The notes: a model not told the origin generated them from the sequence alone. 40,277 nt of DNA from Candidatus Eiseniibacteriota bacterium (GCA_043810925.1 JBDRNT010000115.1:1-40277); one strand, 5' to 3'. Positions 294 to 36,093 are shown, counted from the stretch's first letter. A program made the numbers and translations.

Positions 294-1027
294 AGCGAAA
301 ATCTCTTCTCCTTGTCGATCGTAATAACCACGTTCACTGTATCTCCCCGCGAAACAATGGACCCCGCTCGCGGTTGGTGGGACACAATCCTCGATCTTAA
401 GGGGTTGAATTCGTCATCCAGGCTCGATTCTCGTACAAAGAGCCCCAACCGTTCAAGCCTCATCTTAACAGCGATGTATGACTGGTTTCTGAGATCAGGG
501 AGAAGAACCCGGACCTTGGGAGGCCCGTCGTTTACAAGGATGTTTACGGGGCTACCCTTGACGGCCCGGCGGCCGGGAAGCGGCTCGGTCGATAGCACCT
601 CTTCGGGATAACCCTTGTCGCTCGGGGCCCGTGTCACATAACCAACATAGAACCCGGCCTGTTCAAGATCGATAAGCACCGATCGGAAGGGTTTGCCTAT
701 GCAGTAGGGAACGTCCTCGTATTCACCGCCCCGGCTTATCATGACGACGATCTTCCGGCCTTGCTTGACAACCTTTCCGGCCGGTGGATCCTGTAAGGAT
801 ACGGTGCTTTCGGGATACTCTACGCTGAATTGCTCGCCTACGACCTCATACTTAAGTCCGTTATCGCTTAAGATAAGAGCCGCATCGCTCTCCGCCATAC
901 CCCTCACATCAGGCACCGTCACCTGGCGGCCTCCAACAAACAGGATCATCAAGAGATTGAGTAGGAAGGCCATTCCCACGATGGTGGCAATACCTATCAC
1001 GACGTATGTGAGTACCCCTTTAAACAT
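290..1027 (-). CDS. Membrane-anchored PASTA-domain protein (about 3 PASTA repeats, no kinase domain)
   Basis: N-terminal TM helix, then repeats beginning VPDVRG, VPYCIG and LPDLRN, with Q.P.(A)G..V..G..V.V.IS-type ends. Confidence 0.85.
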   Translation of the reverse strand: MFKGVLTYVVIGIATIVGMAFLLNLLMILFVGGRQVTVPDVRGMAESDAALILSDNGLKYEVVGEQFSVEYPESTVSLQDPPAGKVVKQGRKIVVMISRGGEYEDVPYCIGKPFRSVLIDLEQAGFYVGYVTRAPSDKGYPEEVLSTEPLPGRRAVKGSPVNILVNDGPPKVRVLLPDLRNQSYIAVKMRLERLGLFVRESSLDDEFNPLRSRIVSHQPRAGSIVSRGDTVNVVITIDKEKRFSL

Positions 1028-2355
1028 CAGACCTTTTCCAGTCTTGCTGCGAATATGCCGTCGACATTATCCCGGTGGGGCAGTGTCTGCATCATCCCCT
1101 CTTTATAGACGACAGTCTCAGGTACAAACCGACTTATGTCGGCAAGCCGCACATCGCTGCGCTTGGCGACAACCGTCTCGACGATCTTTTCATTCTCTTC
1201 GGGCTCGAGACTGCACGTACTGTATACCACGACGCCGCCGCGTTTCACAATCTCAATCGCGCCGTTAAGGATCTTGCGCTGGTAGGACGCCATCCTTACG
1301 ATGTCACTTTCGCGCTTGGTCCACCTTAAGTCCCACCTTCTTGCCAGGACCCCGAGCCCGGTACACGGCGCATCGACAAGCACGAAGTCGGCGTCCTTAA
1401 AAGCAGGTGTCCTCGCATCGGAGACCGCGTAGAGCATACCCTCATGGCCGAGCCGGAGGGCGTTTCGCTTAACATCCGGCAGACGGTCAAGCGAGACATC
1501 ACTGGCGATGAGCGTCCCCTTGCCACCCATAATCTCATAGAGATGCGTGGCCTTGCCCCCGGGGGCGCTACAAAGATCGACGGTCGCACTTCCAGCCTCA
1601 GGGCTTAAGACACGGCCAACGAGTGTTGAGCTCGCATCCTGGACCTGGACAAGCCCTTCGCGGTGAACGCGCAGCCGGTCGACGGGACTTGCGCCGCGGA
1701 CATAGACATGATCGGTACCGGCGAAACCGCTTGAGACGATCTCGATTCCCTCGGCCGTAAGCGCCGCTTCAAGGTCTTTGAGTGTCGTCCTCATGGTGTT
1801 CACCCTGAGACCGATCGAGGGGACCCTGTTATTGGCCTCGGCAAGGCTTATGACTTCATCAACGCTCCAGCGCTTAAGCCACCTGCTCACAAGCCAGGCC
1901 GGATGGGAGTAGCGGGCGGCGATATGCTTAACCGGGTCCGTCTTAAGGGACGGATACTCGATCTTATCCTTCTCCCGCAAGAACCGCCTCAAGATAGCAT
2001 TCACGTATGACGCCTGGTGCTCATCACCGTACTGCTTAACAAGTTTAACGCCTTCATTGGTGGCGCCGTAATCCGGCACCCTATCAAGAAATAGGAGCTG
2101 GTAAAGCGAGAGCCTTAGAACGTTTAAGACAACCGGGGATACGACACGGCTCTTCCGGGAAAACTGCTTAACGATATGGTCAAGCCTGCCACGCCACTTG
2201 ATGGTCCCGCTTACTATCTGGGTGGCAAGCGCCCGCTCACGCCGGTCGGGATCGAACCTGCCAAGCAACTCTTCTAAGAGATCGTCGGGCTTTGCCCTGC
2301 CGGGGTATTCGGTGAGCACCCTGAGGGCGATCTCACGGGCCGAGAGTTTTGTCAC
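1027..2355 (-). CDS. rsmB: 16S rRNA m5C967 methyltransferase RsmB/Sun
   Basis: NusB-like N-terminus (AREIAL, YVNAILR), VQVQDASS, DLCSAPGGKAT, VLVDAPCTGLG, YSTCSLEPEENE. Likely start is GTG at 2355 with a GGAGG RBS; the ORF track extends to 2406. Confidence 0.93.
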   Translation of the reverse strand: MTKLSAREIALRVLTEYPGRAKPDDLLEELLGRFDPDRRERALATQIVSGTIKWRGRLDHIVKQFSRKSRVVSPVVLNVLRLSLYQLLFLDRVPDYGATNEGVKLVKQYGDEHQASYVNAILRRFLREKDKIEYPSLKTDPVKHIAARYSHPAWLVSRWLKRWSVDEVISLAEANNRVPSIGLRVNTMRTTLKDLEAALTAEGIEIVSSGFAGTDHVYVRGASPVDRLRVHREGLVQVQDASSTLVGRVLSPEAGSATVDLCSAPGGKATHLYEIMGGKGTLIASDVSLDRLPDVKRNALRLGHEGMLYAVSDARTPAFKDADFVLVDAPCTGLGVLARRWDLRWTKRESDIVRMASYQRKILNGAIEIVKRGGVVVYSTCSLEPEENEKIVETVVAKRSDVRLADISRFVPETVVYKEGMMQTLPHRDNVDGIFAARLEKV

Positions 2356-3175: not shown

Positions 3176-4109
3176 AGCTGAAGAGATCTCCGATCTCGGT
3201 CCTGTAGCCCCGGGCGAATTCGGCGCCGGTGACGGGCCTGCGGCCGAGCGCCTGAAGCGTCATTAGCCACACCGCCCCGCCACTACATGATACTAAGATG
3301 CCGTTTTCCGAATCAATCTCAATTACCTTACCCGGCTCACCCGCCACATCCGGCGCGGCATGAAGCCGGGACCTCATGATCTTTACCCGTTTATCCTTAA
3401 GTCCGGTCATCGCACCGGGCCAGGGGCTAACGCCACGGATATGATTATGCACAACCCGTGCGGGCCGGTCCCATACGATCCGTCCATCCTGCTTGGAAAA
3501 CTTTGGTGCATAAGACGCCAGCTCACTATCCTGCTTGGTACGCGGCGCGGAGCCTTCCGCTACGAGGTCACAGGTCTCGACAAGTACGTCCGCACCAAGC
3601 ACGGCAAGCCGCTCTAAGAGCTCGCCCGCCGTCTCGTCTTCCCCGATTGCGACCGGGCGCGTAAGAATCACATCACCCGTATCCACACCCGGGTCCATGA
3701 AGATTGTGGTGACGCCTGTTTTGGTCTCGTCGTTTATGATCGCCCAGTTTGCAGGCGCAACCCCTCTATACTTGGGAAGCAGCGATGCATGCAGGTTCAC
3801 GCAACCCAGTCTGGGAAGCGCAAGCATCCTCGGCCGCAGGATCTTACCGTATGCAACAACGGCTATGAGATCGGGGGCTACGGCTTCAAGCACTTCACGG
3901 AAGGTCCGGGTGCTGAACTTCTCGGGCTGGTGGACCGTGATGCCATGCGTGAGCGCGCACGCTTTGACGGGAGAGGCCTTGAGGCTTAAGCCCCGGCCGG
4001 CGGGTCTATCGGGCTGGGTTACGACGCATGCAATTTCATGATCGGACTTAAGAAGTCTCTCGAGGCTTGGAACCGCAAAAGCAGGACTGCCGCAGAAGAC
4101 TACTCTCAT
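3147..4109 (-). CDS. fmt: Methionyl-tRNA formyltransferase
   Basis: VVTQPDRPAGRG, VVAYGKIL, NLHASLLPKYRG, D.GVDTGD, YAPK. Confidence 0.96.
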   Translation of the reverse strand: MRVVFCGSPAFAVPSLERLLKSDHEIACVVTQPDRPAGRGLSLKASPVKACALTHGITVHQPEKFSTRTFREVLEAVAPDLIAVVAYGKILRPRMLALPRLGCVNLHASLLPKYRGVAPANWAIINDETKTGVTTIFMDPGVDTGDVILTRPVAIGEDETAGELLERLAVLGADVLVETCDLVAEGSAPRTKQDSELASYAPKFSKQDGRIVWDRPARVVHNHIRGVSPWPGAMTGLKDKRVKIMRSRLHAAPDVAGEPGKVIEIDSENGILVSCSGGAVWLMTLQALGRRPVTGAEFARGYRTEIGDLFSYEADQDTPR

Positions 4110-4636
4110 AGCGGGGATTTTGCCATCTCCTTCGCCCGTTTCCTTATCTCACTCAGCTTCTTCTTAAGCAGGCTCCGTTTGACCACCCCGAGTTTATCGA
4201 CAAACATTACGCCGTCAAGATGGTCGATCTCATGTGAGAAGGCTCTGGCCATGACCCCTTTGGCCTCGATGCTTATCTCGCCACCCTCCGCATCGAGACC
4301 CTCGACCACGACGCTCTCGGGTCGTTTGACATTTGAGTATATGCCCGGAATGCTGAGACACCCTTCCTCACCCGTCACCTCACCGCATGCGGATACAATC
4401 TCGGGATTGACGAGCACGAGATGCTTTCTCCGGCCTTCATCGTCGATGTGAACGACCACGATCACCCGCTTGGTGACCCCGATCTGGGGCGCGGCCAGCC
4501 CAAGACCCGCGGCGTGATCGACGGTGGCCACTAAGCTCGAGATCAGATTCACGGTATCATCGTCAATCGTCTCCACAGGCTCAGACAGCCGCCTCAAGAC
4601 GGGATCGCCATAGAGCCTTATCGGTCTTACCGCCAT
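4106..4636 (-). CDS. def: Peptide deformylase
   Basis: GLGLAAPQIG, EGCLSIPG and HEIDHLDG motifs. Confidence 0.97.
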   Translation of the reverse strand: MAVRPIRLYGDPVLRRLSEPVETIDDDTVNLISSLVATVDHAAGLGLAAPQIGVTKRVIVVVHIDDEGRRKHLVLVNPEIVSACGEVTGEEGCLSIPGIYSNVKRPESVVVEGLDAEGGEISIEAKGVMARAFSHEIDHLDGVMFVDKLGVVKRSLLKKKLSEIRKRAKEMAKSPL

Positions 4637-4640
4637 ACAC

Positions 4641-4976
4641 CTATTCCCGTTCGACTATCGCCGAAATCGCTGCCTTGGAGAACTCGATCTTGACGTCCTC
4701 TGCGATCTTAAGAACGATGATGTTATCCTTAACACCAACAACCGTGCCATAGACCCCACCCGATGTAACCACACGATCTCCCTTCTTGACCGACTCCAAC
4801 ATCTTTTGATGATCCTTCTGCTTCTTCTGTTGCGGTCTAATCAAGAGGAAATAGAAAATGACGAAGATAAGCACTATGGGCCAGAGCCCGAGAAGCCCGC
4901 TTGAGCCTCCCTGCTGCTGATCGCACTGTCCCAGGATGGACCCGATCGAGATCAATCCGTTGAGTACTACAAACAT
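4641..4976 (-). CDS. yajC: Preprotein translocase subunit YajC
   Basis: FYFLLIRPQQKKQK, GDRVVTSGGVYG. Directly downstream of tgt. Confidence 0.95.
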   Translation of the reverse strand: MFVVLNGLISIGSILGQCDQQQGGSSGLLGLWPIVLIFVIFYFLLIRPQQKKQKDHQKMLESVKKGDRVVTSGGVYGTVVGVKDNIIVLKIAEDVKIEFSKAAISAIVERE

Positions 4977-4990
4977 CTGGACACCTCCGT

Positions 4991-6121
<1,131 letters not shown>

Positions 6122-6132
6122 TTAACTCACTC

Positions 6133-7164
6133 CTACACTATGAGCATGGCATCGCCGTAACTGAAGAACCTGTACTTAAGCCCTACGGCCTCATCATATG
6201 TCTTCATAATAAGGTCTCGACCTGCAAATGCGCAAACGAGCATGAGGAGTGTTGAGCGCGGGAGGTGGAAATTGGTGACGAGCGCATCGACCACCTGGAA
6301 GTCATAGGGAGGAAGAATGAACTTGTTTGTCCAGCCGCTCTGGGGCTTTAGATCGCCGCCACCGGATCTCTCCGCAACCGTCTCAAGCGTCCGGACAGAG
6401 GTGGTACCGACGGCGATGACGCGCCCGCCCTCCCGCCTGGCGGCGTTTATGCTCCGGCAACACGCACCGTCCATCTCGAAGTACTCGGCATCAAGCATAT
6501 GCTCGCCCGGGTCATCGGTCTTTACAGGGAGGAATGTGCCGGGACCGACGTGGAGCGTTAAAGATGCTATTCCCACGCCCTTCTTGCGTATCTGGGCCAG
6601 CAACTCCTCTGAGAAGTGTAGACCGGCTGTGGGCGCGGCGACCGAGCCTTCCTTCCGGGCATAGACGGTCTGATACCTCTCTATGTCTGATTCCACGGGC
6701 AGCCGCTTGATATAGGGTGGAAGCGGGACCTTGCCCACCTCATCGATTACGGTTCGTACATCGACACCGGGAAATTCGATTACGCGTTTAGCCCCTTCCA
6801 GTCGCTCGATGACGACACACCTGTACTTATCTCCCAGGACCACTTCCGCACCACTCTTAAGCTTCCTCGATGGTGAGACCAGGGCTTCCCATCTGCCGTC
6901 ACCAACCTCTCTTACAAGCAGGATCTCCACCTTGCCGCCGGTTGCTTCTTTCCGGCCCAGGAGTCTCGCCTTTATGACTTTGGTGTCGTTGATGACAAGG
7001 AGATCGCCGGCTTCAAGGTAGTCGGCAATGTTCTTAAATTGAGCGTGGGAGATCACTCCGGCCGCCCTGTCGAGCACGAGGAGACGCGAGGCTTCACGCC
7101 GCTCGGCGGGCATAAATGCGATCAGGCCATCAGGTAAGTGATACTCGAAGTCATCGGTTCTCAT
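6133..7164 (-). CDS. queA: S-adenosylmethionine:tRNA ribosyltransferase-isomerase
   Basis: NDTKVIKARL, PLPPYIKR, YQTVYA, AAPTAGLHF, TNFHLPRSTL, FFSYGDAM. Confidence 0.97.
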   Translation of the reverse strand: MRTDDFEYHLPDGLIAFMPAERREASRLLVLDRAAGVISHAQFKNIADYLEAGDLLVINDTKVIKARLLGRKEATGGKVEILLVREVGDGRWEALVSPSRKLKSGAEVVLGDKYRCVVIERLEGAKRVIEFPGVDVRTVIDEVGKVPLPPYIKRLPVESDIERYQTVYARKEGSVAAPTAGLHFSEELLAQIRKKGVGIASLTLHVGPGTFLPVKTDDPGEHMLDAEYFEMDGACCRSINAARREGGRVIAVGTTSVRTLETVAERSGGGDLKPQSGWTNKFILPPYDFQVVDALVTNFHLPRSTLLMLVCAFAGRDLIMKTYDEAVGLKYRFFSYGDAMLIV

Positions 7165-8237
7165 CAGAAGAGCTTTGACTGATCTTCCGGGGAACGCGCT
7201 TTACCAAAGTGCTTATGCGCGAGCTCGGTTACCTCTCGCCCTCGCGGGGTCCGCTCGAGAAAACCCTCCTGCACGAGATAGGGTTCGTAGACTTCCTCGA
7301 TGGTCTCCGCCTCTTCACCAACGGCCGTAGCCAGGGTGCTTATACCCACGGGGCCACCGCCGAACTTCTCCATTATGGTCGTCAGTATCCGCTTGTCCAT
7401 GTCATCAAGCCCGCATTCATCAACCTCAAGCGCCTCAAGACCGATCCGGGCGATATCCATCGTGATCTTGCCCTCGCCCTTGACCTGGGCGAAATCCCTT
7501 ATCCTTCTTAAGAGCCTGTTGGCAATCCGGGGAGTGCATCGTGCGCGCTCTGCAATTTCTGCGGCACCGTCATCATCGATCTCTATACCGAGGATACCGG
7601 CGGATCTTTCAACTATGAGTTTAAGCTCCCCGGGAGTGTAGAAGCCTATCCGGCTTACGACCCCGAATCTTGCCCGCATCGGCGACGTTATCATGCCCGC
7701 CCGGGTGGTTGCGCCGATCAGGGTGAACTTGTTGAGATTGAGTTTGATCGATCTTGCGCTTGGTCCCTTATCGATCATGATGTCGAGCGTAAAATCTTCC
7801 ATCGCCGGGTAGAGATACTCTTCGACAATGTGATTGAGCCTGTGAATCTCATCGATGAAGAGGACACAACCTTCCCTGAGATTGGTGAGTACCCCGGCCA
7901 GATCGCCCGGCCGCTCGATCACCGGACCCGATGTCGCGGTCATGGGAACACCTATCTCGTTTGCGATTATCGAAGCCAGGGTGGTCTTACCCAGGCCGGG
8001 GGGACCGTAGAAGAGGACGTGATCCAAGGCTTCGCCCCGCATTCTCGCGGCTTCAATGAATACCCTGAGATTGTCCTTGAGTTTCTCATGACCCACGAAT
8101 TCTTCAAGTGTCTTGGGTCTTAAGCTCGTATCAAGTTCCTGCTCGTCGACACCGGCCGTGGGGTCGGTCAGCCTCGAGACCGCATCATCCCGGACCGTAT
8201 GCAGGTGCTTTCTTTTAGGTGTGTCTGAGGGCACCAC
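7164..8237 (-). CDS. ruvB: Holliday junction branch migration helicase RuvB
   Basis: [49 protein letters not shown]. Confidence 0.97.
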
Positions 8238-9292: not shown

Positions 9293-9295
9293 GAG

Positions 9296-10048
9296 CTACT
9301 CCCCGCCCAGGCTCTCGATTATCTCATCGGGTACGTCGAAGTTGGCGTATACCTTCTGGACATCGTCATGCACGTCAAGGGCATCCATCAGTCTGAGGAC
9401 CTGCTCCGCCGGCTTGCCTTCGAGCGCGATGACCGTCTGCGGGTTCCGCGTAAGCTGCGCCCTCACAAGCGGCATGCCCTTCTCAACGAGAGCGCTCCTC
9501 ACCTTCTCGAGATCCCCGGAAGTCGTGACAACCTCGAAGAAGTCGTTTTCAGTCTTCACGTCCTCCGCTCCGGCGTCGAGCGCGACGGTCATCAGTTCAT
9601 CCTCATCGACCTTGCCCTTTTCAACCTCGATCGAGCCCTTGAGATCGAACATCCATGAGACACAGCCGACCTCACCGAGGTGGCCGCCGTTCTTGCTTAA
9701 GAGATGTCTTATCTCCGATGTGGTCCTGTTCTTGTTGTCCGTCAGAACCTCTATCAGGATCGCAACACCCTGGGGTCCGTAGCCTTCGTAGCTGTGCTCC
9801 TCGTAGGTTATCCCCGGGAGCTCGCCCGTTCCCCGCTTTATGGCCTTGTCGATGTTGGCGGCCGGCATGTTACCCGACCGGGCAGCGTCGATTGCCGCCC
9901 TCAGCCTTGGATTCCCATCCGGGTCTCCACCACCGGCGCGGGCGGCGACAGTGAGCTCCTTAATTATCTTACTAAAGAGCTTACCCCGCTCAGCGTCGGC
10001 CTTGCCCTTCTTACGCTTGATTGTGCTCCACTTTGAATGACCTGACAT
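9296..10048 (-). CDS. yebC: YebC/PmpR family protein
   Basis: MSGHSKWSTIKRKK, YEGYGP.GVA, TDNKNRT, DDVQKVY.N. Canonical position upstream of ruvC. Confidence 0.95.
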   Translation of the reverse strand: MSGHSKWSTIKRKKGKADAERGKLFSKIIKELTVAARAGGGDPDGNPRLRAAIDAARSGNMPAANIDKAIKRGTGELPGITYEEHSYEGYGPQGVAILIEVLTDNKNRTTSEIRHLLSKNGGHLGEVGCVSWMFDLKGSIEVEKGKVDEDELMTVALDAGAEDVKTENDFFEVVTTSGDLEKVRSALVEKGMPLVRAQLTRNPQTVIALEGKPAEQVLRLMDALDVHDDVQKVYANFDVPDEIIESLGGE

Positions 10049-10072
10049 ATATGTTCACCTCTCTATTTACAA

Positions 10073-10101: not shown

Positions 10102-10135
10102 ATGAAATTAAGGGGGGACGGAAGAGCAAGGTTTT

Positions 10136-11086
10136 TCAGCCTTTTGAGGCGCCGGTCGCGTTAACCGCAGGTTTGTCGGTTTTCGGTACTTCCACCTTTA
10201 TTCGCTTAAGATCGATCTCCCCTACCCCGTTGTCATATGCAGCCATGAGATGGGGTACTTCCCTGGCAGAGAGGCTCCTGCCGCCGAACTTGTAGCGTGA
10301 TGTGACTACCGAATCGAGAGCGAGGATGTCGGTACCTGCAAACAGCCTGTTATCTTCGGTTACGGGCCCCGGGCCTGTCGGGCCTCCATTGAGAAGGACG
10401 CGCCGGGCATCGATAATGTTGAGATCGGGTCGGACCACAGTCGCAAGATCGCCTATTGCTTTCGCGAGATCCAGCTGCGTGTGAAAGGCCGAACGGTCCC
10501 AGATAGCACCCATCAGGTTTTTAATCGCGAGGCTTACACGTGCCGCCGAATGATGCTTGGCGGTGGCCACATTGATGAAGAGATCGGCGCTCGAGAGCAT
10601 CTTGAGTATCTCGGTCTTCTTTAAGACCTTGCCGGCTACATCAACGGGCTCAAAGAAGCTCCGTTCATTCGCAAGCACGAGCTTCGCGGCCGGGTACTTC
10701 TCGGCCACCTTCACGAGTTCCACCCTGCTGAAGTTGGCGGCTTGCTGAAGTGTGTGATCGGTGATGATGATGTCCCTCACACCTGCATCTACAAAAAACT
10801 CACAGAGTGCGTCGACAAGCTCCGGAGAGGTCGTCGTGGCCCGCCCGGGAGGATGCGGCAGGCAGAGGTTGGGTTTTATGAGAACGGTCGCTTTAGACGG
10901 GTCTCCGGAGAGGAGCTTCTTTATGCCACCTAAGGAGGAAAAAAGGCTTCGAACCGCATCACGCGCCGCACCCTCAATCTCCCAGACCACGGCAGCCGGT
11001 TTGTCATCACCGAGTGATAGGCTCCACGGTAGCAGGCTTGCAGCAAAGGCGGCGCCGCCGGCCTTGAGGAAACGTCTTCGTTTCAT
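10136..11086 (-). CDS. DUF362-domain protein with Tat signal
   Basis: MKRRRFLK twin-Arg signal. VLIKPN, TAKHHS, LAIKNLMG, GGP.GPG, D.LALD motifs. Confidence 0.85.
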   Translation of the reverse strand: MKRRRFLKAGGAAFAASLLPWSLSLGDDKPAAVVWEIEGAARDAVRSLFSSLGGIKKLLSGDPSKATVLIKPNLCLPHPPGRATTTSPELVDALCEFFVDAGVRDIIITDHTLQQAANFSRVELVKVAEKYPAAKLVLANERSFFEPVDVAGKVLKKTEILKMLSSADLFINVATAKHHSAARVSLAIKNLMGAIWDRSAFHTQLDLAKAIGDLATVVRPDLNIIDARRVLLNGGPTGPGPVTEDNRLFAGTDILALDSVVTSRYKFGGRSLSAREVPHLMAAYDNGVGEIDLKRIKVEVPKTDKPAVNATGASKG

Positions 11087-11104
11087 GCTCTTCCGCCTCG
11101 CCTC

Positions 11105-12091
11105 TTAAGCCACATCGATCAGTTGCTGCTCTACCCTTGCGAGATCCATCTCACCGAGACCCATCTCGTGCCCTATCCGGATGTAACCGATGTCCTCTCC
11201 GGACAGTTCCTGCCCGGTCAGGTCCCGAAAAAGGCTTGCCCCGTAGGAATCGACGGCAACGGGATCGGTGCCGACTATCAGGTGCCGCCCCAGTATGACA
11301 TCCTCGGGCGTACCCGCGTTGGGGCCGTGCGCCTTGAGTACACGGAAGGCATCCATGATTGTAAGATGCGGCTTTATCACCGTGTTTATGTCCGCAAGTT
11401 TCTGATCGAAGTCCGGGTGAATGCTCTCACGATTCCCGCCTATGAGACCCATGAGATTCTTCATCCCCATCGTCAATCGCGCCATGCTGTGATGCTTTAA
11501 GACGGGCACATTGATCAGGACGTCGGCATCAAACGCATCCGCATACATCTTCCAGGACTTGATGCTCTTGCCCTCGGGAATGGCCACGTCTTCGAATTTC
11601 CGCTCGTCCATATAGCTGATGTTCCCGCCGGCGCGCCCCACGGCTTCCTCGATACCGCTCAGCCGGTAAGTCCGACTCACGGGATTGCAGGGGTAGTCGA
11701 ACACATTGACCTGCTTGGCACCGGCGTCCTGGCACAACTCGATGATGGCCTCGACAACAAAGGGGTTGGTGTTCGCTGCCTGTTCGGGTCTCCGGCTCCA
11801 CGCGATATTGGGTTTGACCACAACTGTGTCATCCTTCTTCACGAAACGCTCAATGCCGCCGACTGCCTGGATCGCAGCCCTCACCAGCTTCATCGGGTCA
11901 TCACTGCCCCTGGCGATCGCAAGCCCGATATCCTGCCGGGCGGCCCCCTTCATGGTACGCACAACCGATGCCCCGCCGGCGACCTTCTCCTTCTCCCCAC
12001 CACATCCAATCAGGTGAGGGCATGTGGCGGCGAGCCCCGCAACGGCCATGCTCTTAAGGAATGCTCGTCTGTGCAGTTTGTTATCTTCCAT
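11105..12091 (-). CDS. DUF362-domain protein with Tat signal (possible lipoprotein)
   Basis: HRRAFLK twin-Arg signal and LIGC lipobox-like motif. VVVKPNIAW, NTNP, PVLKHHS, MKNLMG, DPVAVD. Confidence 0.88.
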   Translation of the reverse strand: MEDNKLHRRAFLKSMAVAGLAATCPHLIGCGGEKEKVAGGASVVRTMKGAARQDIGLAIARGSDDPMKLVRAAIQAVGGIERFVKKDDTVVVKPNIAWSRRPEQAANTNPFVVEAIIELCQDAGAKQVNVFDYPCNPVSRTYRLSGIEEAVGRAGGNISYMDERKFEDVAIPEGKSIKSWKMYADAFDADVLINVPVLKHHSMARLTMGMKNLMGLIGGNRESIHPDFDQKLADINTVIKPHLTIMDAFRVLKAHGPNAGTPEDVILGRHLIVGTDPVAVDSYGASLFRDLTGQELSGEDIGYIRIGHEMGLGEMDLARVEQQLIDVA

Positions 12092-13074: not shown

Positions 13075-14706
13075 TCAGACTCCCCTTCCGCCGGAATAGC
13101 GCTCCGGGTGGCGGTCTTCACCGCGCGCGGTGACACGGATGGCCGGCTCATCCTTAAGAGGGCACTTCTTTTCACAGATACCGCAGCCTATGCAGGTCTC
13201 GGTCACAACGTAGGGTCGTTTGACAATCACCGTCCTGTTTGTTTCCTGCTCTAAGACTTCGGTTTCCCAGAACTTGATCGATTTCTCCGGAGTCGGGCAG
13301 TGCTCCTCGCATACGAGGCAATTGAGGTTTTCATTCCACGGATAGCACTTGTTCTTGTTGAAATAGGCGGTGCCGATCTTGGTCTCCTTCTTCTCCTCAA
13401 GCGAGAGTCTCCCGATGGCACCCGTAGGACAGACCTCCGAACACGCGTTACACTCATAATCGCAGTAGCCCACGGCAGGCACGAGTTTGGGTGTGCCTAC
13501 ACCCTCTAAGCCGGCTTCAAAAACCGCCGGCTGAAGACCGTTCGTGGGACAGACCTTCATGCACTCCGCACACCGGATGCATCTGTCCAGGAACTCCTCT
13601 TCGGGAAGAGCTCCCGGCGGCCGGATCAACCACGGTGGGAAGTCACGATCGGATATCTTGAGTTTGAGCAAAGGTACCGTGACAGCGGCCACAGCAGCCG
13701 CTTCGAGAAACCGGCGTTTCGATAGATCGAGCCCTGCGGGAATCGCCCGCCTCTCCTTCCGGATACTCCTGATGGGAGACTGGAATTTGAGCCGCACGGC
13801 GTCCTCGGGGCAGACATCCTCGCAGTTAAAGCATTCGACGCACTCCTGCGGCCAGTATCCGCCGGCCTTCTCGGCAATCGCAGCGGTCTTGCACTCGCGG
13901 ACGCAACCGTTACACTCCGTACACTTGTCCCGATTGACGACCCACCGCAGGAAGGTGGCCTTAGAAAGGAGTCCAAGCATGGCACCGAGCGGGCAGAGAT
14001 AGCGGCACCAGAATCTCTGGTGCAGGAATGAAAGCGCCAGTATCAGCGCAAAGAAGGCAAACGAGATGTGATGGAGTGCCGTGATCGGCTGGTACCCGAT
14101 CTCAGGATTCGGAACGAACACGTACTGCTTGAGGAAGTCGTACACGGGCTCCGAGATCCGGTTCACGACGGGGACCTGCCAGAGGGGATCGAGAACGGCC
14201 CTGGCGGCGTAAGTCAGGTAGGGATAGATGGCGACAGCATAGCTTCGGGTCGCGATCGGAATCGGGTCCATCAACCATGCAATTTGAGTGCTGAAGAGTG
14301 CAGCCACCAGGAATGCACCCAGGATGTAATACTTGATATTCCGGAGACCGCCTGAATGCATGGTCACGGGCTTGCTTCGCTTCTTCCGTCTTCTCCCGGC
14401 GATGCGATCCCAGATGTCAATCGTGGTCCCGAGCGGACAGACCCAGTTACAGAAGAATCTGCCCAGTATGATCGTGAGAACGATCACGACGAGAGCGGGC
14501 ACAAACTTAGGGAAGAAGCCAGCCGCGCTACGCGCCGCCATCATCGCGGAGACGGCGGCCAGCGGGTCAAGGCGCAGAAAGGTGTCGGGCGGAAGCCAGG
14601 TCTCAACGGGTGAGACTGTCCTGATCAGCAGGATCAGGAAGAGCACGAACACCGCAACCTGAACCCCACGCCTCACTAATTTCGGTACTGATTTCGGTGA
14701 CACCAT
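13075..14706 (-). CDS. Membrane polyferredoxin (NapH/MauN-like membrane part fused to a NapG/MauM-like 4Fe-4S domain)
   Basis: GRFFCNWVCPLG and RFWCRYLCPLG, several CxxCxxCxxxCP clusters, and an internal KRRFLE before RPPGAL. The start is either the ATG at 14706 (inside the repeat) or the inferred ancestral GTG at 14676. Confidence 0.88.
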   Translation of the reverse strand: MVSPKSVPKLVRRGVQVAVFVLFLILLIRTVSPVETWLPPDTFLRLDPLAAVSAMMAARSAAGFFPKFVPALVVIVLTIILGRFFCNWVCPLGTTIDIWDRIAGRRRKKRSKPVTMHSGGLRNIKYYILGAFLVAALFSTQIAWLMDPIPIATRSYAVAIYPYLTYAARAVLDPLWQVPVVNRISEPVYDFLKQYVFVPNPEIGYQPITALHHISFAFFALILALSFLHQRFWCRYLCPLGAMLGLLSKATFLRWVVNRDKCTECNGCVRECKTAAIAEKAGGYWPQECVECFNCEDVCPEDAVRLKFQSPIRSIRKERRAIPAGLDLSKRRFLEAAAVAAVTVPLLKLKISDRDFPPWLIRPPGALPEEEFLDRCIRCAECMKVCPTNGLQPAVFEAGLEGVGTPKLVPAVGYCDYECNACSEVCPTGAIGRLSLEEKKETKIGTAYFNKNKCYPWNENLNCLVCEEHCPTPEKSIKFWETEVLEQETNRTVIVKRPYVVTETCIGCGICEKKCPLKDEPAIRVTARGEDRHPERYSGGRGV

Positions 14707-24236: not shown

Positions 24237-24656
24237 CTATTTGGTAAACTTCCTCAACCCACTGACAAGTGCCTGTTGAGGTAACTTGGCGAGGGTTTCA
24301 GCCGGCAGATCCTCGGGTCTGATTCTGTCATGAGTTCCGGGCCGGAGTCCAATCGCGCGCAGGGCCTCCATCACCTTCGCAAGATCGACGCCTCTCGGAC
24401 ACCTTGCGTGGCACGCGAGACACGAGGCACAAACCCAGTGCGTGTTCGTCTCCATGGCCTCTTCCTTAAGTCCCAGCTGGACGAACCGGATGACCTGGTT
24501 CGGCAGAAGTCTCATGGCAAAAGTGAGCGGGCAGCCGGAGGAGCATCTTCCGCACTGGTAACAGTTTAGAACGTTCTGGCCGCTTATCTCGTTTACGAGT
24601 TTTACGAAGTCGCCGTTGACGTTCTCTCTGGACAGCCTGACTCGTGTTGGGCACAT
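24237..24656 (-). CDS. hdrC: Heterodisulfide reductase subunit C
   Basis: CYQCGRCSSGCP, WVCASCLACHARCPRGVD. Likely start is the ATG at 24656 (GGAG RBS); the ORF-track extension to 24854 crosses promoter DNA. Confidence 0.9.
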   Translation of the reverse strand: MCPTRVRLSRENVNGDFVKLVNEISGQNVLNCYQCGRCSSGCPLTFAMRLLPNQVIRFVQLGLKEEAMETNTHWVCASCLACHARCPRGVDLAKVMEALRAIGLRPGTHDRIRPEDLPAETLAKLPQQALVSGLRKFTK

Positions 24657-24694
24657 CTTAAAGTATCTCCATTCTCCGGGTTTGGATCCCGAAA

Positions 24695-24876: not shown

Positions 24877-25602
24877 GTGATAGTTGTTCATACCGTCTTG
24901 CTTAAGTCGGGTGTCGGCGACATTATACTTGGCGCCGGCATCGTGGCTAAGCTCGTGCTAGCCATCCTGATAGTCCTTTCGATCATTTCGTGGGCTATTG
25001 CGATCGACAAGTTTCGTGCCTTCAGAAAGTGCAACAGGCACACGAAGAAGTTTCTCTCGATGCTTCCCCGGGATTTCTCGATCTTTGAAGCCTCGCGCCA
25101 CGGACGTGGGTTCGAGGAATCGAATCTTCCCCATCTCATGATTGAAGGTGCGACGTCGGTCGAGAAGGACCTGGCGGCGATCTCTTCAGTGGAGGAGTCC
25201 CACGCCCGGATGATCGCCGAGTCCGCGAAGAGCGCGATGGAACGGGCCGCACTCAACATGATCGACGGAATGGAGCGCAACCTGAGCTTCCTGGCAACGA
25301 CGGCAAGCGTGTCGCCCTTTCTGGGTCTCTTCGGAACGGTATGGGGTGTGATGAATTCGTTCCTGAGTATGGGCCAGATGGGTTCCGCGAGCCTTACCGT
25401 GGTGGGTTCGGGCGTTGCAGAGGCCCTGATAACGACCGTGTTCGGACTTGGCGCGGCGATTCCGGCGCTCGTGGCCTACAATTACCTTGTCAACAACATC
25501 CGCCGCGAGAGATCTCAGATGGACTCTTTCATATCACGCGTGGCCGAGAGCATCGAGAAGGAGATCCTGCGTGAACTTAACGCCCCAAAAGTCTCTGTCT
25601 GA
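24877..25602 (+). CDS. tolQ: TolQ/ExbB/MotA proton channel protein
   Basis: LSIISWAI, LATTASVSPFLGLFGTVWGVM, AEALITT..GL.AAIPA..AYN. Confidence 0.9.
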   Translation: MIVVHTVLLKSGVGDIILGAGIVAKLVLAILIVLSIISWAIAIDKFRAFRKCNRHTKKFLSMLPRDFSIFEASRHGRGFEESNLPHLMIEGATSVEKDLAAISSVEESHARMIAESAKSAMERAALNMIDGMERNLSFLATTASVSPFLGLFGTVWGVMNSFLSMGQMGSASLTVVGSGVAEALITTVFGLGAAIPALVAYNYLVNNIRRERSQMDSFISRVAESIEKEILRELNAPKVSV

Positions 25603-29289: not shown

Positions 29290-31182
29290 GTGCTGCCCCG
29301 TGTGAAGCATCTTCTCCGGGCCACAGGCATAAGTGACGAGAGAATAGAAGAAGCATACCAGATGATAAAGGGATCGGGCAGGTACCCTGCCCGAATGCCC
29401 TCCCACTATCTCGCCATAGCCATCGAACTCATAGAGATGGATCGCCGGAAACCCGGGGCCGTGCAGATCTACATAAGTCCCAAGCCGACCAAGTATGCCC
29501 TCGGGCGTCCGTCGGTCACCTTCGCGGTCCTTGCGCGTGACTGGGCCGGGTTGATCAATTGCTGCACGGGTACGCTTCACGAGAAGGGGTTTAACATCGC
29601 GTTCTGTGAGGCCGTCATCATCGACGAACCCGACCAGAGCGTCGCCCTGGTCTTCATGGAAATCGACGTCGCCGAGCAGACGGAATTCGAGCACCTCCTG
29701 AGTCTTGAGCCTGAGATAGAGGTGACGCTAGTAAGAACAGCGGCCGAGGAGACGGGCAAGGGCGAGTTGCTTGCGATGGAGACCAAGAAAGCGGAACACT
29801 ACTCGCTTGTGGTCGAGGAGCTTAAGAAGATCGCCAAACCGTCCTCGCACGCAGCCTTCTTCGGAGACAAGGGTGAGGCCGTCAGGTTCTTTGGAGCGCG
29901 GACCCTGGCTTATCTCATCGAACGCAGACCGGAGGATCTTGCCGATCTCATCAACACCAACCATAGGTTCATAGCCGGTGTCAGAAAGACCTCAAAGATA
30001 TATGCGAAGGTCGATAACATCGCCACCCCTGCGGGTGAACTCACAGGCATTTCGGTGGCGGGCTTCGAACACGACGTCTCCATGGGTGATTGTTTTCGAA
30101 TGATAGATGAGGTGGTCCCCGGGTACCAGCGCAAGTATGACAAAGTTTTCATTACAGGTGACAGGGTGAATGTGATCAGGATCGAGATAGTAGATGCCAA
30201 GGAAAGAGGCCTGACGCCCGATCAGCAGGTTGAACTCCGTGAGAAGATCATAAGCATCCAGGATGCCCCGGTCTGCGACAGGCTCTCACCCGGTGTCGAA
30301 CTCATAGGAAGGAAGATATGTCCGGTAATGCTTGAGGAGGAAAGGCAACTTAAGCTCCCGCAGGCCTACATGCACCCTCACAGCAGGTCGAATATCAAGG
30401 TGGTACTCGTTACCTCGGGAGCCGACCGGGGCCAGGCCTTCCGGTGCGTTGAGAAAATAAGCGAGATCAAGGGCCTCACGGCAGGAATGCCGGATCCGCC
30501 CTCGCTGGTGACCTCCGGAACGGGTGAGAGCGTGGTAGTACAGGAGGTCGTGATAATCGATGTCTGGGTGAATTTCGAGTCTTTCTTCGGCACTACCAAA
30601 GGTCCTTACAACGATGAAATGATACTCGTAGGAATAGAGAACGCGCTTAGAAGAGCCGACGACATAGGCCCCAAGATACGAATCTTTGACAGAACCGGCA
30701 GACAACTCAGGCGGGAAAGATCCGAGAAGATCTCCGGAATGGCCAAGGAACGGAAACTCGACCCTGAGATCGCCCGCCAGATACTTTCCAGGATGGGTGA
30801 CAAGCTGATTGTCTCGCCTACCGTATCCGACAACGAGGTATTCCAGCAGGTGCTGACCGGTATCGAGGCCATTACCGGCTGGATGGATGGCGACCGGGCG
30901 GCCCCGGTTACTGCATGGCGCGGGGTGGATCTCGGGCCTGCGGGTAGAGGAGCCTCTTACACCGTGTTTGCCGTGATTCACGAACCGAATCAGTTCGGCG
31001 TGGGCGAAGTGGTGAAGACCGCGTCCTCATTCGGTCTTGAAAGCTCGACTGTCGTAAACGGCAGCGACTACACGCTTGCCCTGCTGAGGCTCTCTCACCA
31101 GGGTAAATCGCTCGAGGAAAAAGAGGTCGCAGAGCTGTCGCTTAAGCTTAAGCCCGCAATGGGCGGCACCGGCGCCCCGTAG
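29290..31182 (+). CDS. Hypothetical protein with ACT-like domain(s)
   Basis: 630-aa ORF starting 2 nt after the cpoB stop. The segment VTFAVLARDWAGLINCCTGTLHEKGFNIAFCEA resembles an ACT domain. Confidence 0.6.
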   Translation: MLPRVKHLLRATGISDERIEEAYQMIKGSGRYPARMPSHYLAIAIELIEMDRRKPGAVQIYISPKPTKYALGRPSVTFAVLARDWAGLINCCTGTLHEKGFNIAFCEAVIIDEPDQSVALVFMEIDVAEQTEFEHLLSLEPEIEVTLVRTAAEETGKGELLAMETKKAEHYSLVVEELKKIAKPSSHAAFFGDKGEAVRFFGARTLAYLIERRPEDLADLINTNHRFIAGVRKTSKIYAKVDNIATPAGELTGISVAGFEHDVSMGDCFRMIDEVVPGYQRKYDKVFITGDRVNVIRIEIVDAKERGLTPDQQVELREKIISIQDAPVCDRLSPGVELIGRKICPVMLEEERQLKLPQAYMHPHSRSNIKVVLVTSGADRGQAFRCVEKISEIKGLTAGMPDPPSLVTSGTGESVVVQEVVIIDVWVNFESFFGTTKGPYNDEMILVGIENALRRADDIGPKIRIFDRTGRQLRRERSEKISGMAKERKLDPEIARQILSRMGDKLIVSPTVSDNEVFQQVLTGIEAITGWMDGDRAAPVTAWRGVDLGPAGRGASYTVFAVIHEPNQFGVGEVVKTASSFGLESSTVVNGSDYTLALLRLSHQGKSLEEKEVAELSLKLKPAMGGTGAP

Positions 31183-31218: not shown

Positions 31219-32094
31219 TCACCTGCCTACTATCAGGATGCCGGCGCAGATCAGGGCGCACCCGGCGATGACCGCACCGGATAGGGTCTCACCCAGCAAT
31301 ACGCACGCAATGATCACCCCGAAGACCAGTTCGGCCAGGAGCACTATCGCAGATGTGAGCGCGCCGATGTGTTTTATGGCCGCGGTCCAGATCAGGAAGG
31401 GTAGCACACTGCAGAAGACAGCGAGATAGACCACTGAAAGCCACACGTTTGCATCCGGCCTGATGGCGCCGCCAAGGCCCGGCAGCGCAGCCACGAGGAA
31501 GATTGGAAGCGTCCAGAGGAAAACACCGGTTACGAGCGGAATCTCGCGGAACGTGCGTCTGCTGACGGCCATCTTGGTAAACACGATGTAAAGGGCATAG
31601 CAAAGCGACGACCCCGTGATCAGGATGTCACCTCGCAGGCTCTGTACTCCATCGGGGGCCAGACTCTTTCCACCGACGACCAGATACACCCCACATACAC
31701 CGATGGCGAGCGCGATCAGTTTCTTCCGGCCTATGTGCTCCTTGAGCAACACAACGCTCAGTGGAGCAACCAGCACGACGCCTGAGTTTATTATCATGGC
31801 GGCCTTGGCGGCGGTGGTCTCGGTCTGCCCTATGAACTGAAGACCGAAGCTTCCCGCAAGTGTAAGGCCCAGAAGCAGGACGTACCGGTCTTTGAGATAC
31901 GAGGCCAGCACGGCCGCCTGCCCGGTCAGGAACACGATCACAAGAAGCACAATTGAGGCAGCGAGAAATCTTAAGAAGACGAAGGAATACGGTTCGATGT
32001 GTCGAAGGCCGACCTTCACCACACTGAACGAGGAGGCCCAGAGCAGCGCCGCCGCAACAGTCATCACAATGGGTGCACGGACTTGCCTGGTCAT
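31219..32094 (-). CDS. EamA/DMT family transporter
   Basis: About 10 TM helices, LWASSF..VK, FLRF, L.E.I, GD, ELVF......LLGE.L. Confidence 0.9.
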   Translation of the reverse strand: MTRQVRAPIVMTVAAALLWASSFSVVKVGLRHIEPYSFVFLRFLAASIVLLVIVFLTGQAAVLASYLKDRYVLLLGLTLAGSFGLQFIGQTETTAAKAAMIINSGVVLVAPLSVVLLKEHIGRKKLIALAIGVCGVYLVVGGKSLAPDGVQSLRGDILITGSSLCYALYIVFTKMAVSRRTFREIPLVTGVFLWTLPIFLVAALPGLGGAIRPDANVWLSVVYLAVFCSVLPFLIWTAAIKHIGALTSAIVLLAELVFGVIIACVLLGETLSGAVIAGCALICAGILIVGR

Positions 32095-32116: not shown

Positions 32117-32536
32117 CTATCGCACTATCAGCACAGAGCATGCGGCCCCTTCAGCAAGTTTTCTGCTCACGCCACCCATCATTTTCGAGCCGGGGCTTCC
32201 CGCCCCCGTCCTTCCGACCACGAGAAGATCGTACCCCCCGCGCTCTGCCTCATCGAGCAAGGCCCTGGCGGGCTCTTCTTCGCGAAGCAGTCTGCCCTCG
32301 GGATCGGCACCGATGGCTTTAACAGCGTCAACAGTGCTCTTCAGCACCCGTTTCCACTCTTGAAGATAGCCTTCCATCATATCGGAACTGACATCTGATG
32401 CATAGACCCGCGGGAAATAGGCGACCGTGGCAACCGTCAACGCAGCGGAGTATGTCTTGGCCACTTCTCCGGCAATTCTCGCGGCCTTAAGCGAGGTGCC
32501 CGACCCATCTGATGCGACCAGTATCCTCTTGAACAT
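32117..32536 (-). CDS. Universal stress protein
   Basis: MFKRILVASDGS, DLLVVG..G, GGVS.KL...A.CSVLIVR. Confidence 0.92.
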   Translation of the reverse strand: MFKRILVASDGSGTSLKAARIAGEVAKTYSAALTVATVAYFPRVYASDVSSDMMEGYLQEWKRVLKSTVDAVKAIGADPEGRLLREEEPARALLDEAERGGYDLLVVGRTGAGSPGSKMMGGVSRKLAEGAACSVLIVR

Positions 32537-34336: not shown

Positions 34337-36093
34337 CTGCCTGCCGCCTTCTTCTGATAGATGCTGAACGTCCCGATCTGGTCCACCCTGATGAAATTCG
34401 ACTTCACGTGTGCTTTCATCCGGGGGAAATCACTCCACCTCTCACCGGTGTTGAACCACGAGACCTGCTCAAGAATGAAAATCGTGACGTTGTTTCGTTC
34501 AAGCTCGCTTATGATCCAGCGATCGAGATCGGCGTTGGCACCGCTCGAATAGGTGACCCCGCGATGGAACCATAGGACGGGCTGGGGTGACGGGACATCG
34601 AGCAGACCATAGAAAAGCGTAAGATCCGGAAAGATGAAGAAGTTCTGCTTCTGCTCTTTGAGATACCTGTAGAGCCGCACGATGCTCTCAGCACTTATCT
34701 CGTGCCCTCCCATCCGGGTGGGCTCGGCCCACCTCAGGGGCTTCAGACCCCCGACGGCGACCGGTCGCGGAAACGTCGATCCCCTGAATATGTCGTGCAC
34801 TTTCCGATTCATGGAGACCTCTATACCCTTTTGCGATGCAAGAGCAACCACAATCACTACTATAGCGGCGACCGCCAGTCTCACACCTTTTGCCTTAGCG
34901 GTCAGACGCCCGGGTTCAGTGGCGACCGCCAGTCTCACACCTTTTGCCCTCGCGCTCGGACGCCCGGGCTCAGTGGTCATGCCCAACAGCAGTCCTACGG
35001 CGATAGCGAAACTTGTACCGGCGAAAGCGAGCGCGTTCTCTGGCTGGTTGAGGGTAGTATTGACGAACACATGCTGGAAAAGCACACAGTAAGCACACGT
35101 TGCGGCGGCTATGAGCCGACGCCTGGTAACCTGCCCCCTGCCGGTCGTCCGGGCACGGCGAATCGCCATGACAAGAGATCCCAGAGCGATGATCACGGAG
35201 CCCAGGATCATGAGATTGATCACGGGCTCGCCCCGCCCGCCGAAGAAGGGTCTCAGGAGACCGAACCACGACCTTGTGAAGCCGGCCAGTCTTTCCATCC
35301 CGAGATCGGATGCTACTCCGAAGAAGTACTCGACAAACGTGGCCGGATCGGACTTAAGGTAAAGCCAGAGCATGAAGCATCCGACGCTTGCGACGATGCC
35401 GACCAGAAAGACTCCCAGTCCCTTAAGGAGTCGCCTGCGGTCGTAGATGCCCACCGTCACAAGCAGCAGAGGGTAGACCGGAAACATGAAGGCGGCCACA
35501 TTCTGCTTGCTTATGAAAGATGAAAAGGCAAGACACCCGGAAAGACCGATGAGAAGACCACTCTTTCTGAAATCTTCCCGGTCACGCGTGATGGCGGCGA
35601 GCAGGACTGCAAGAGCAGCGAATGAGAAGAAGAACGCAGTCTGATCCACCCATGGGGTCCCGAACGGAGGGTAGAACCACACCGCCGTGAGCAATCCGCC
35701 CGCGTACGATAGGACCCTCATCGACGGCAGCACCAACCTTACTACGATCACGCTCAGGAGCGTCGCCACTACGTTGATCACCGCCGCCCCGACGATGTAG
35801 GAAAGATAAGATACGCCCAGGACTTTGAAGAAGAGAGCGTGGAGCCAGAATGCCATCGGCCCGAAGGGCAGCACAAAGTCGCGGTACGGTACCTGGCCCG
35901 AGAGGACCCTGTAGCTTCCATCAAAAAGAATGGACTGGTCGAACGGGTAGAAACCCCGCCGGCCCGCTTTGAGAGTGAGATAAAACGCGAAACCGGACAG
36001 GACAAGTAGCGCTACTACATCAAGTACCGCCGGCCATGGGCTCCTACTGTCATCTCCAGTAGTCCCCGCAGGGCTGTAGCCATCGTCAGTCAT
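34333..36093 (-). CDS. Polytopic membrane protein, GT-C/ArnT-like glycosyltransferase fold
   Basis: First loop DQ......Y.VL.GQVPYRDF..P.GP, about 12 TM helices, KQN motif, soluble C-terminal domain. Confidence 0.6.
   Translation of the reverse strand: MTDDGYSPAGTTGDDSRSPWPAVLDVVALLVLSGFAFYLTLKAGRRGFYPFDQSILFDGSYRVLSGQVPYRDFVLPFGPMAFWLHALFFKVLGVSYLSYIVGAAVINVVATLLSVIVVRLVLPSMRVLSYAGGLLTAVWFYPPFGTPWVDQTAFFFSFAALAVLLAAITRDREDFRKSGLLIGLSGCLAFSSFISKQNVAAFMFPVYPLLLVTVGIYDRRRLLKGLGVFLVGIVASVGCFMLWLYLKSDPATFVEYFFGVASDLGMERLAGFTRSWFGLLRPFFGGRGEPVINLMILGSVIIALGSLVMAIRRARTTGRGQVTRRRLIAAATCAYCVLFQHVFVNTTLNQPENALAFAGTSFAIAVGLLLGMTTEPGRPSARAKGVRLAVATEPGRLTAKAKGVRLAVAAIVVIVVALASQKGIEVSMNRKVHDIFRGSTFPRPVAVGGLKPLRWAEPTRMGGHEISAESIVRLYRYLKEQKQNFFIFPDLTLFYGLLDVPSPQPVLWFHRGVTYSSGANADLDRWIISELERNNVTIFILEQVSWFNTGERWSDFPRMKAHVKSNFIRVDQIGTFSIYQKKAAGS
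34867..34974. repeat. 54-bp in-frame tandem duplication inside the GT-C-like gene
   Basis: 34867-34920 and 34921-34974 differ at 5 of 54 positions. Encodes TEPGRPSARAKGVRLAVA / TEPGRLTAKAKGVRLAVA. Confidence 0.92.

Follow-up and report, generated by a model that had tools for sequence, protein, structure and literature searches.

The window examined here, that is, the whole stretch of DNA that was analysed, is one complete contig (C115) of 40,277 nucleotides from an assembly of a Candidatus Eiseniibacteriota bacterium (GCA_043810925.1 JBDRNT010000115.1:1-40277), and our subject is the palindrome CTTAAG, which it contains exactly 34 times. The assembly (G000 in what follows) comprises 3,850,420 bases in 185 contigs, with 56.3% guanine plus cytosine (GC), and is 91.7% complete. 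Pfam families could be assigned to 35 of the 37 open reading frames (ORFs) of the window, including rsmB, fmt, def, yajC, tgt, queA, ruvABC, yebC, an EF-G-family GTPase, Hdr-like Fe-S/flavoproteins and Tol-Pal; a C25 peptidase with a type IX secretion tail is also encoded, and the nearest named relatives of RuvB are unclassified metagenome-assembled genomes (87% identity) and Zixibacteria-type ones (65-68%). The window is housekeeping DNA from a Gram-negative anaerobe that has not been cultured. A first-pass annotation took the abundance of CTTAAG as the mark of a motif resembling the highly iterated palindromes (HIP), driven by methylation, repair or protein binding; we propose, with a probability of about 0.65, that it results from codon usage and codon-context bias, and not from a selected or methylation-driven motif.

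All 34 positions listed in that annotation are exact copies of CTTAAG, and the window holds no others. If codon boundaries are written as hyphens, 23 sites read CTT-AAG, 10 read xxC-TTA-AGx (the TTA frame) and one, at 11104, lies over a TAA stop codon; the four TTA examples singled out earlier do read as given on the coding (minus) strand (CCC TTA AGA at 396, ATC TTA AGC at 867, GAC TTA AGG at 1325, GTC TTA AGC at 1604). The sites are given below with the frame taken from our gene calls, the family from Pfam and, where stated, the state in the congener G001 by alignment. Genes were called throughout with a simple and crude combination of ORFs and codon log-odds (2968 genes, 88% coding), and the calls in the window are consistent with the Pfam-supported ORFs.

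396..401, xxC-TTA-AGx, PASTA-domain gene 290-1027(-); TTG in G001
851..856, CTT-AAG, same PASTA-domain gene; kept in G001
867..872, TTA frame, same PASTA-domain gene; CTG AAC in G001
1325..1330, TTA frame, rsmB-like gene 1027-2406(-); GAC TTA AGG, in G001 GAT CTC AGG
1604..1609, TTA frame, same rsmB-like gene; GTT TTG AGC in G001
1873..1878, CTT-AAG, same rsmB-like gene
1942..1947, CTT-AAG, same rsmB-like gene
3396..3401, CTT-AAG, fmt-like gene 3147-4109(-)
3985..3990, TTA frame, same fmt-like gene; the only one of 8 TTA-frame sites in the block 1-10102 kept in G001
4047..4052, CTT-AAG, same fmt-like gene
4163..4168, CTT-AAG, def gene 4106-4636(-)
4707..4712, CTT-AAG, yajC 4641-4976(-); kept in G001
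6175..6180, CTT-AAG, queA 6133-7164(-)
6856..6861, CTT-AAG, queA 6133-7164(-); kept in G001
7507..7512, TTA frame, ruvB 7164-8237(-); CTC TTA AGA, in G001 CTT CTC AGG
8119..8124, TTA frame, ruvB 7164-8237(-); AGC TTA AGA, in G001 AGT CTC AGA
9696..9701, TTA frame, yebC-like gene 9296-10048(-); TTG in G001
10205..10210, CTT-AAG, DUF362 gene 10136-11086(-); kept in G001
11104..11109, over the TAA stop (GCT-TAA-G) of DUF362 gene 11105-12091(-)
12053..12058, CTT-AAG, DUF362 gene 11105-12091(-); kept in G001
13153..13158, CTT-AAG, 4Fe-4S protein gene 13075-14706(-)
16745..16750, TTA frame, EF-G-family gene 16621-18720(-)
17032..17037, CTT-AAG, same EF-G-family gene
21754..21759, CTT-AAG, Fe-S/flavoprotein gene 21304-23295(-)
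24465..24470, CTT-AAG, Fe-S protein ORF 24237-24854(-), missed by the gene caller
24901..24906, CTT-AAG, MotA/TolQ gene 24877-25602(+)
29821..29826, CTT-AAG, ORF 29290-31182(+), no Pfam family
30349..30354, CTT-AAG, same ORF 29290-31182(+)
31141..31152, two abutting sites, CTTAAGCTTAAG, read in tandem as Leu-Lys-Leu-Lys close to where ORF 29290-31182(+) ends
31970..31975, TTA frame, EamA transporter gene 31219-32094(-)
32486..32491, CTT-AAG, Usp gene 32117-32536(-)
35353..35358, CTT-AAG, gene 34333-36093(-)
35422..35427, CTT-AAG, same gene 34333-36093(-)

In 100 dinucleotide-preserving shuffles of the window, CTTAAG occurred 4.70 times on average (standard deviation 2.07, maximum 11), and no shuffle reached 34. 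As had been expected, the excess extends beyond the window, the whole assembly holding 1531 copies; its size had been put at about 5-fold, and here the estimate was inflated by the window itself, which ranks second-richest among 106 windows of 40 kb (0.84 sites per kb, against 0.40 per kb genome-wide). For the whole assembly, four composition nulls give the following.

Zero-order: 696 expected, observed/expected 2.20x
Dinucleotide: 431 expected, 3.55x, rank 1 of 4096 hexamers
Order-3 Markov: 617 expected, 2.48x
Maximal-order Markov: 1390 expected, 1.10x

The last excess is only 1.10x, and therefore the signal is already present in shorter words: among the trinucleotides of G000, AAG/CTT leads in over-representation (1.30x), as CTTAA/TTAAG does among its pentamers (1.50x, z=20.7), and 1531 of the 4744 genomic TTAA sit within CTTAAG. 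The sites tend to be preceded by T and followed by A (36% each), independently of one another, and a longer hidden motif was rejected, TCTTAAGA being seen 211 times where independence of the flanks predicts about 198. Paralogy or repeats were also rejected as a source, as the commonest 10-mer context is found just 29 times. The raw variance-to-mean ratio across windows is 1.70 for CTTAAG and 0.99-1.34 for five control words; once gene-level expectations are used the heterogeneity is not significant (chi-squared 76.9, 59 degrees of freedom, p=0.059), so that islands or a chimeric assembly were discarded, and the regional spread is accounted for by gene composition. The site-free tail from 35428 to the end, which includes the C25 gene, had been taken as a weak hint of recent acquisition; for the two genes that run from 36086 to the end the expectation is 0.88 sites, and the probability of finding none 0.42, which lends the idea no support. 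A search of the literature on CTTAAG over-representation, palindromes, AflII and methyltransferases found no report of CTTAAG enrichment.

The reading frames are, in our opinion, where the explanation should be sought. Besides 123 intergenic sites and 15 that straddle gene ends, 1393 sites lie fully inside genes, 1056 as CTT-AAG (Leu-Lys) and 337 as xxC-TTA-AGx. In G000, CTT makes up 22.4% of Leu codons, AAG 76.2% of Lys codons and TTA only 2.3% of Leu codons (2442 codons); Leu-Lys dipeptides number 5232, compared with 4340 expected from amino-acid frequencies, and codon usage leads to an expectation of 893 for CTT-AAG. The two favoured codons being each other's reverse complement, Leu-Lys on either strand writes CTTAAG, and a common dipeptide with favoured codons accounts for about two thirds of all sites. 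When synonymous codons were permuted within each gene (40 shuffles), the total was 1393 against 946.3 (standard deviation 24; 1.47x, z about 18, rank 68 of 4096 by ratio), so that an excess does outlive the codon-usage null. It is very uneven: CTT-AAG stands at 1056 against 900.0 (standard deviation 23), or 1.17x, and C-TTA-AG at 337 against 46.3, or 7.3x (z=39), the largest frame-specific ratio in the genome. The earlier remark that the sites are not only Leu-Lys, and that they use a TTA codon which should be rare, was therefore well founded. As a separate observation, the coding hexamers of G000 most above the synonymous shuffle nearly all hold an off-frame TGA at the codon junction (CTT-GAG, TCTTGA, GCTTGA, TTGAGA, TGAGAA; up to z=31.6).

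The share of TTA among Leu codons is 14.7% in C-Leu-AG, 1.8-3.5% in A-, G- or T-Leu-AG, and 3.0% where C-Leu is followed by something other than AG. CTT is nearly excluded before AG (0.18x in C-CTT-AG, 0.33x in T-CTT-AG), which fits the strong depletion in G000 of CTAG (0.28x) and of TTAG/CTAA (0.57x); before AG there is a preference for TTR, and before TTR one for C, and TTA plus TTG make up 31-33% of Leu in C-Leu-AG alike in G000, G001 and the sister genome G002. We infer that these contexts are stacked: avoidance of TTAG- and CTAG-type words would keep CTT out of the position before AGN, TTR would be preferred there and C before TTR, and together they would funnel the otherwise rare TTA into C-TTA-AG. 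The first-pass annotation had itself named a dicodon-controlled null as a measure of its reading, and under such a null the coding total falls to about 1.07-1.10x, CTT-AAG being itself a single dicodon. For C-TTA-AG, where we used a dicodon chain and a model of all pairwise context effects fitted by iterative proportional fitting (IPF), 337 are observed against 210 (chain) or 241.6 (IPF).

Is this context effect peculiar to G000? We compared it with genomes sampled at 47-566 kb and passed through the same pipeline, namely the congener G001, the sister G002 (which matches G000 with a GC of 56.4%, CTT at 22.6% of Leu and AAG at 77% of Lys), two congener pairs of differing state (G003/G012 and G005/G010), further relatives, and G019 and Escherichia coli K-12 as unrelated controls. 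For C-TTA-AG the observed and expected numbers are as follows.

E. coli K-12 (200 kb): 13 / 5.6 (2.3x)
G019 (91 kb): 13 / 4.0
G002 (566 kb): 16 / 5.5
G001 (198 kb): 13 / 2.7
G003 (212 kb): 22 / 2.8

In these samples of 91-566 kb, the TTA-frame effect appears to be general in direction, weaker elsewhere, and amplified about 2-2.5x in G000. That the strongest effect is a choice of a rare codon (14.7% against 2.3% overall) might suggest selection at the level of the mRNA or of translation on UUAA contexts, its strength differing by lineage, for instance through tRNA decoding of UUA or a sequence-specific endoribonuclease. Such a cause would agree with a lineage differential seen in coding DNA (about 2x) and not in non-coding DNA (1.05x), and with the fact that at 3 of the 8 TTA-frame sites of the block 1-10102 the congener has xxT-CTC-AGx, three silent changes away, as if there were two acceptable contexts. 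We nevertheless hold it to be very unlikely: the effect is equal in frames that involve different codons (CTT-AA and C-TTA-A), which is unexpected for a tRNA-specific cause, and when genes are ranked on AAG usage the TTA-frame ratios show no steady trend over the quartiles (4.8, 7.4, 9.9, 6.9).

A motif with a function at the DNA level might be expected to leave traces in the conservation of its sites and outside genes. In 158 kb of G000 aligned to G001 (85.3% identity), a check that the first-pass annotation had recommended, only 23 of 80 CTTAAG sites are kept, the lowest figure of 14 words; nine control palindromes keep 317 of 625 (51% against 29%, Fisher p=2e-4) and all hexamers 40.8%. In the aligned block of the window 6 of 21 are kept. 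The usual G001 counterparts are CTCAAG and CTTGAG, and the same aligned DNA holds 80 sites in G000 and 58 in G001. The 123 non-coding sites of G000 compare with 72-80 expected from Markov models of order 1-3 and with 129 from the maximal-order model; there is no C...G interaction around TTAA in non-coding DNA (odds ratio 0.86, from counts of 123, 200, 200 and 279), as against an odds ratio of 2.35 within TTA-A contexts in genes. Nor is there a difference in non-coding CTTAAG between G000 and G002 (0.249 and 0.226 per kb, ratio 1.05, from 35 and 10 sites only). The words TTGACA, TATAAT and AAGGAG are enriched in the same non-coding DNA of G000.

These results bear directly on the comparison with cyanobacterial HIP1 (GCGATCGC). 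Both are short palindromes, top-ranked genome-wide, found in more than one reading frame and varying between related lineages. HIP1, however, is over-represented 15- to 300-fold in the account of Xu, Lawrence and Durand (2018, PMC5861425), whereas CTTAAG reaches 2.2-3.55x against composition and 1.47x against codon usage, below an order of magnitude, and the conservation behaviour described there for HIP1 is the opposite of what we see, CTTAAG sites being less conserved than every control word. A HIP-like palindrome would also be expected in excess in every frame and outside genes; CTTAAG has an excess that differs by frame (1.17x for Leu-Lys, 7.3x for TTA) and no hexamer-specific effect in non-coding DNA. 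CTTAAG is not HIP-like, and the view of a motif driven by methylation, repair or protein binding is left without support by the dicodon null, the low conservation, the lack of a non-coding interaction, a signal that lies in half-words, the C-TTA-AG effect in E. coli and a methyltransferase that does not track the word (see below). No CTTAAG methyltransferase is known from E. coli K-12.

A better analogy can be found in the codon-pair bias and oligonucleotide genomic signatures of bacteria, reportedly described by Gutman and Hatfield in 1989 and by Karlin and co-workers. The likeness lies in species-specific departures of dicodons and short words, in the avoidance of T-A junctions and of CTAG and TTAG, in a signal that is nearly gone under a dicodon null, and in the same direction of effect in E. 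coli. Two features are unlike a usual signature, namely the 1.4x residual of C-TTA-AG beyond pairwise effects, and a level that switches between congeners, more sharply than slow drift.

It is in the contrast among relatives that the situation becomes more complex. Whole-genome counts of CTTAAG, with GAATTC as control, differ strongly.

G000: 1531 / 1206
G016: 70 / 1137
G017: 102 / 1517
G030: 46 / 961
G015: 50 / 282
G006: 114 / 416

Avoidance of restriction sites is well described in prokaryotes, and Gelfand and Koonin are said to have treated it in 1997. An AflII-type restriction-modification system, present or recently lost in the relatives, could have removed their sites, leaving G000 at the level determined by its codons. 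The low counts in G016, G017, G030, G015 and G006 would fit, as would the Leu-Lys frame in the samples of G012 (7 against 28.2), G006 (1 against 6.8) and G029 (3 against 8.9), an abundance strongly variable between related genomes, and the identity of CTTAAG with the six-base Type II target of AflII, as given in PMC7653180. We had first read such avoidance from Leu-Lys ratios of 0.15-0.28x in G002, G012, G006 and G017, and have largely withdrawn it, because G002 at 566 kb gives 0.52x and because G002, G010 and G017 sit at the baseline of other NNT-AAG pairs. T-A junctions are avoided generally in the family (other NNT-AAG pairs at 0.28-0.65x), and relative to these pairs CTT-AAG stands as follows.

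High: G000 1.85, G003 1.75, G005 1.61, G001 1.36
At baseline: G002 1.01, G010 0.93, G017 0.85
Low, with at most 7 sites each: G012 0.55, G006 0.46, G029 0.56
Outside controls: E. coli 1.16, G019 1.22

The deficit of the relatives is thus mostly the general avoidance of T-A junctions, with values near 0.5 only in G012, G006 and G029. Moreover, CTTAAG in G000 is in excess (1393 against 946 in coding DNA), in G002 the depletion is equally strong for CTTAAA, which is no palindrome, a pattern not to be expected from a Type II system, and the methyltransferase search, with 12 of 20 PF01555 hits fetched as loci, turned up no group restricted to low-count genomes. Restriction avoidance in the relatives has, in our judgement, a very low probability. 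Two other contrasts between these genomes may be separate restriction-avoidance signatures: CCGG words (ACCGG, CCCGG, ACCCGG, CCGGTA) occur 1.5-2.1x more often in G000 and in G001 than they do in G002 at equal GC, and CTCGAG in the non-coding DNA of G000 stands at 0.41x that of G002.

Several observations weigh against reducing the excess to codon usage and context. G002 has a Leu-Lys frame at just 0.52x despite the same GC and codon usage, and therefore codon usage alone does not set the level of CTTAAG. CTTAA-type words are the top differential words both between G000 and G002 and between G003 and G012, and the differential in coding DNA, about 2x whichever the frame or the orientation, resembles an effect at the level of the word. 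Under the synonymous shuffle, CTTAAG is first of the 64 palindromic hexamers (1.47x, the next having 1.37x); within G000, CTT-AAG at 1.17x is the highest of the 16 NNT-AAG pairs, the others ranging from 0.34 to 0.94 (pooled 0.64); and the three-way residual of C-TTA-AG (1.40x, z=6.1) is the largest among all Leu contexts. It should be added that all gene calls come from our own crude ORF caller and that the relatives were seen only through samples of 47-566 kb.

The differential itself can be described in some detail. Among 2075 words compared between G000 and G002, TCTTAA (3.3x) and CTTAAG (2.46x) differ most, with CCTTAA (1.93x) and CTTAAA (2.75x) next; between G003 and G012 the first places go to CTTAAG among hexamers (4.35x) and to CTTAA among pentamers (3.64x). 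The difference is graded over half-sites (YTTAAR 2.2-3.1x, RTTAAY 1.2-1.7x), and the signal resides in the half-word CTTAA and in the degenerate YTTAAR, not in the palindrome. Words containing CTTAA are about 2-4x commoner in the coding DNA of G000 and some relatives than in sisters with the same GC and codon usage; within the account that we favour, based on codon usage and context, these genomes would in addition be about twice as tolerant as their sisters of TT-AA junctions in a C/T...G/A setting. A weak, lineage-variable force on CTTAA(G) is conceivable, though unlikely.

Could such a force act on the DNA itself? One may imagine a weak drive on (T)CTTAA(G)(A), repeatedly gained and lost in lineages of the family and roughly doubling the frequency of the word. 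We regard this as unlikely; it might take the form of a methyltransferase-coupled repair bias, by analogy with very-short-patch repair, or of mild selection in favour of a site that is methylated or bound. It would fit the high ratios of CTT-AAG to NNT-AAG in G000, G003, G005 and G001 and the lower ones in G002, G010 and G012, the state differing within genera (G003/G012, G005/G010); it would also fit the ranking of CTTAAG and its half-words in both comparisons, the twofold differential in both frames and orientations, and the larger number of sites in G000 than in G001 in the same aligned DNA. G000 encodes, in addition, several N6/N4 and D12 DNA methyltransferases. However, the effect is small and lies in half-words (CTTAAA 2.75x, CTTAAC 1.7x), reaching even TTTAAA (3.5x), so that it is not palindrome-specific; the T and A flanks are independent of each other; non-coding DNA has neither a difference between G000 and G002 nor a C...G interaction; and the sites turn over faster than controls.

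Very-short-patch repair, which is coupled to Dcm in E. coli and raises CCWGG while lowering its T-containing neighbours, is a known route by which a methyltransferase-linked repair bias can raise its own palindromic target, and a process of the sort envisaged in the first-pass annotation. Here, unlike that system, no C5-methyltransferase gene was found in the 91.7% of the genome that is available, and no single one-mismatch neighbour of C-TTA-AG is selectively depleted (N-TTA-AG ratios of 0.86 for A, 1.42 for G and 1.25 for T). We searched five low-count genomes for PF01555, PF02086 and PF00145 and clustered the hits with those of G000 (PF02384 was not searched in relatives, which limits, as does the partial fetching of PF01555 hits, the absence of a group specific to low-count genomes). 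The only group common to the family is a CcrM-like enzyme, found in the same synteny in high- and low-CTTAAG genomes including G000, and it therefore does not explain the contrast. The first-pass annotation had suggested looking for an orphan methyltransferase; this one, apparently a family-wide orphan, does not track the abundance of CTTAAG.

In G000 the gene for this CcrM-like N6/N4 methyltransferase is split over two contig ends (C72:66465-66743, at the end, and C71:1-387, at the start; loci L003 and L002), and for this reason the two contigs are probably adjacent. G002, G006 and G012 have orthologues (60-75% identity) with the same LarA and sigma-54 activator genes as neighbours, and the enzyme appears, judging from these sequences, to be a family-wide orphan. 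Elsewhere (C12:38729-42418, L001), a methyltransferase of the N6/N4 class of 406 amino acids (aa) lies directly downstream of a 339-aa ORF without Pfam or NCBIfam family; the two may form a Type II restriction-modification pair.

Two further features of the window deserve mention. The Pfam search gave no family for the ORFs 29290-31182(+) (630 aa), which comes after the Tol-Pal/TPR genes, and 36086-36475(-) (129 aa). An IS200-like Y1 transposase gene (Pfam Y1_Tnp; ORF 14859-15587(+)) lies between repeats at 14688-14782 and 15552-15640. The repeat, of 27 nucleotides, starts with TTTCGGTGACACC and is present in three direct copies upstream, at a spacing of 32 nucleotides, and in inverted copies downstream; a BLAST search with the repeat region of about 100 bp gave 17 further hits in the assembly, on 14 other contigs with one within the window. 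Transposase and repeats look like an arrangement of the REP/RAYT type.

The case is useful as a worked control, in which a hexamer ranked first of 4096 under a dinucleotide null, and similar at first sight to a HIP-type motif, reduces to codon usage and context when it is examined with nulls that respect the reading frame and with a test of conservation; palindromes made of a preferred codon and its own reverse complement, such as CTT and AAG, need a synonymous-shuffle or dicodon null before a motif is called. For the family itself, one can think of a discrete determinant, gained and lost, that would roughly double to quadruple coding (T)CTTAA(G) and switch even between congeneric genomes, and it might consist of an orphan methyltransferase to which a repair bias is coupled, or else of a nuclease or RNase with sequence specificity; we find it improbable, and if it were true, it would amount to a counterpart of HIP-type systems that is weak, still at an early stage or in decay, and its dynamics could be compared between sister genomes. 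More tentatively, should a single gene cause the difference of 2-4x between sisters in the tolerance of CTTAA/YTTAAR in coding DNA, this family might offer a route to study word-level genome signatures.

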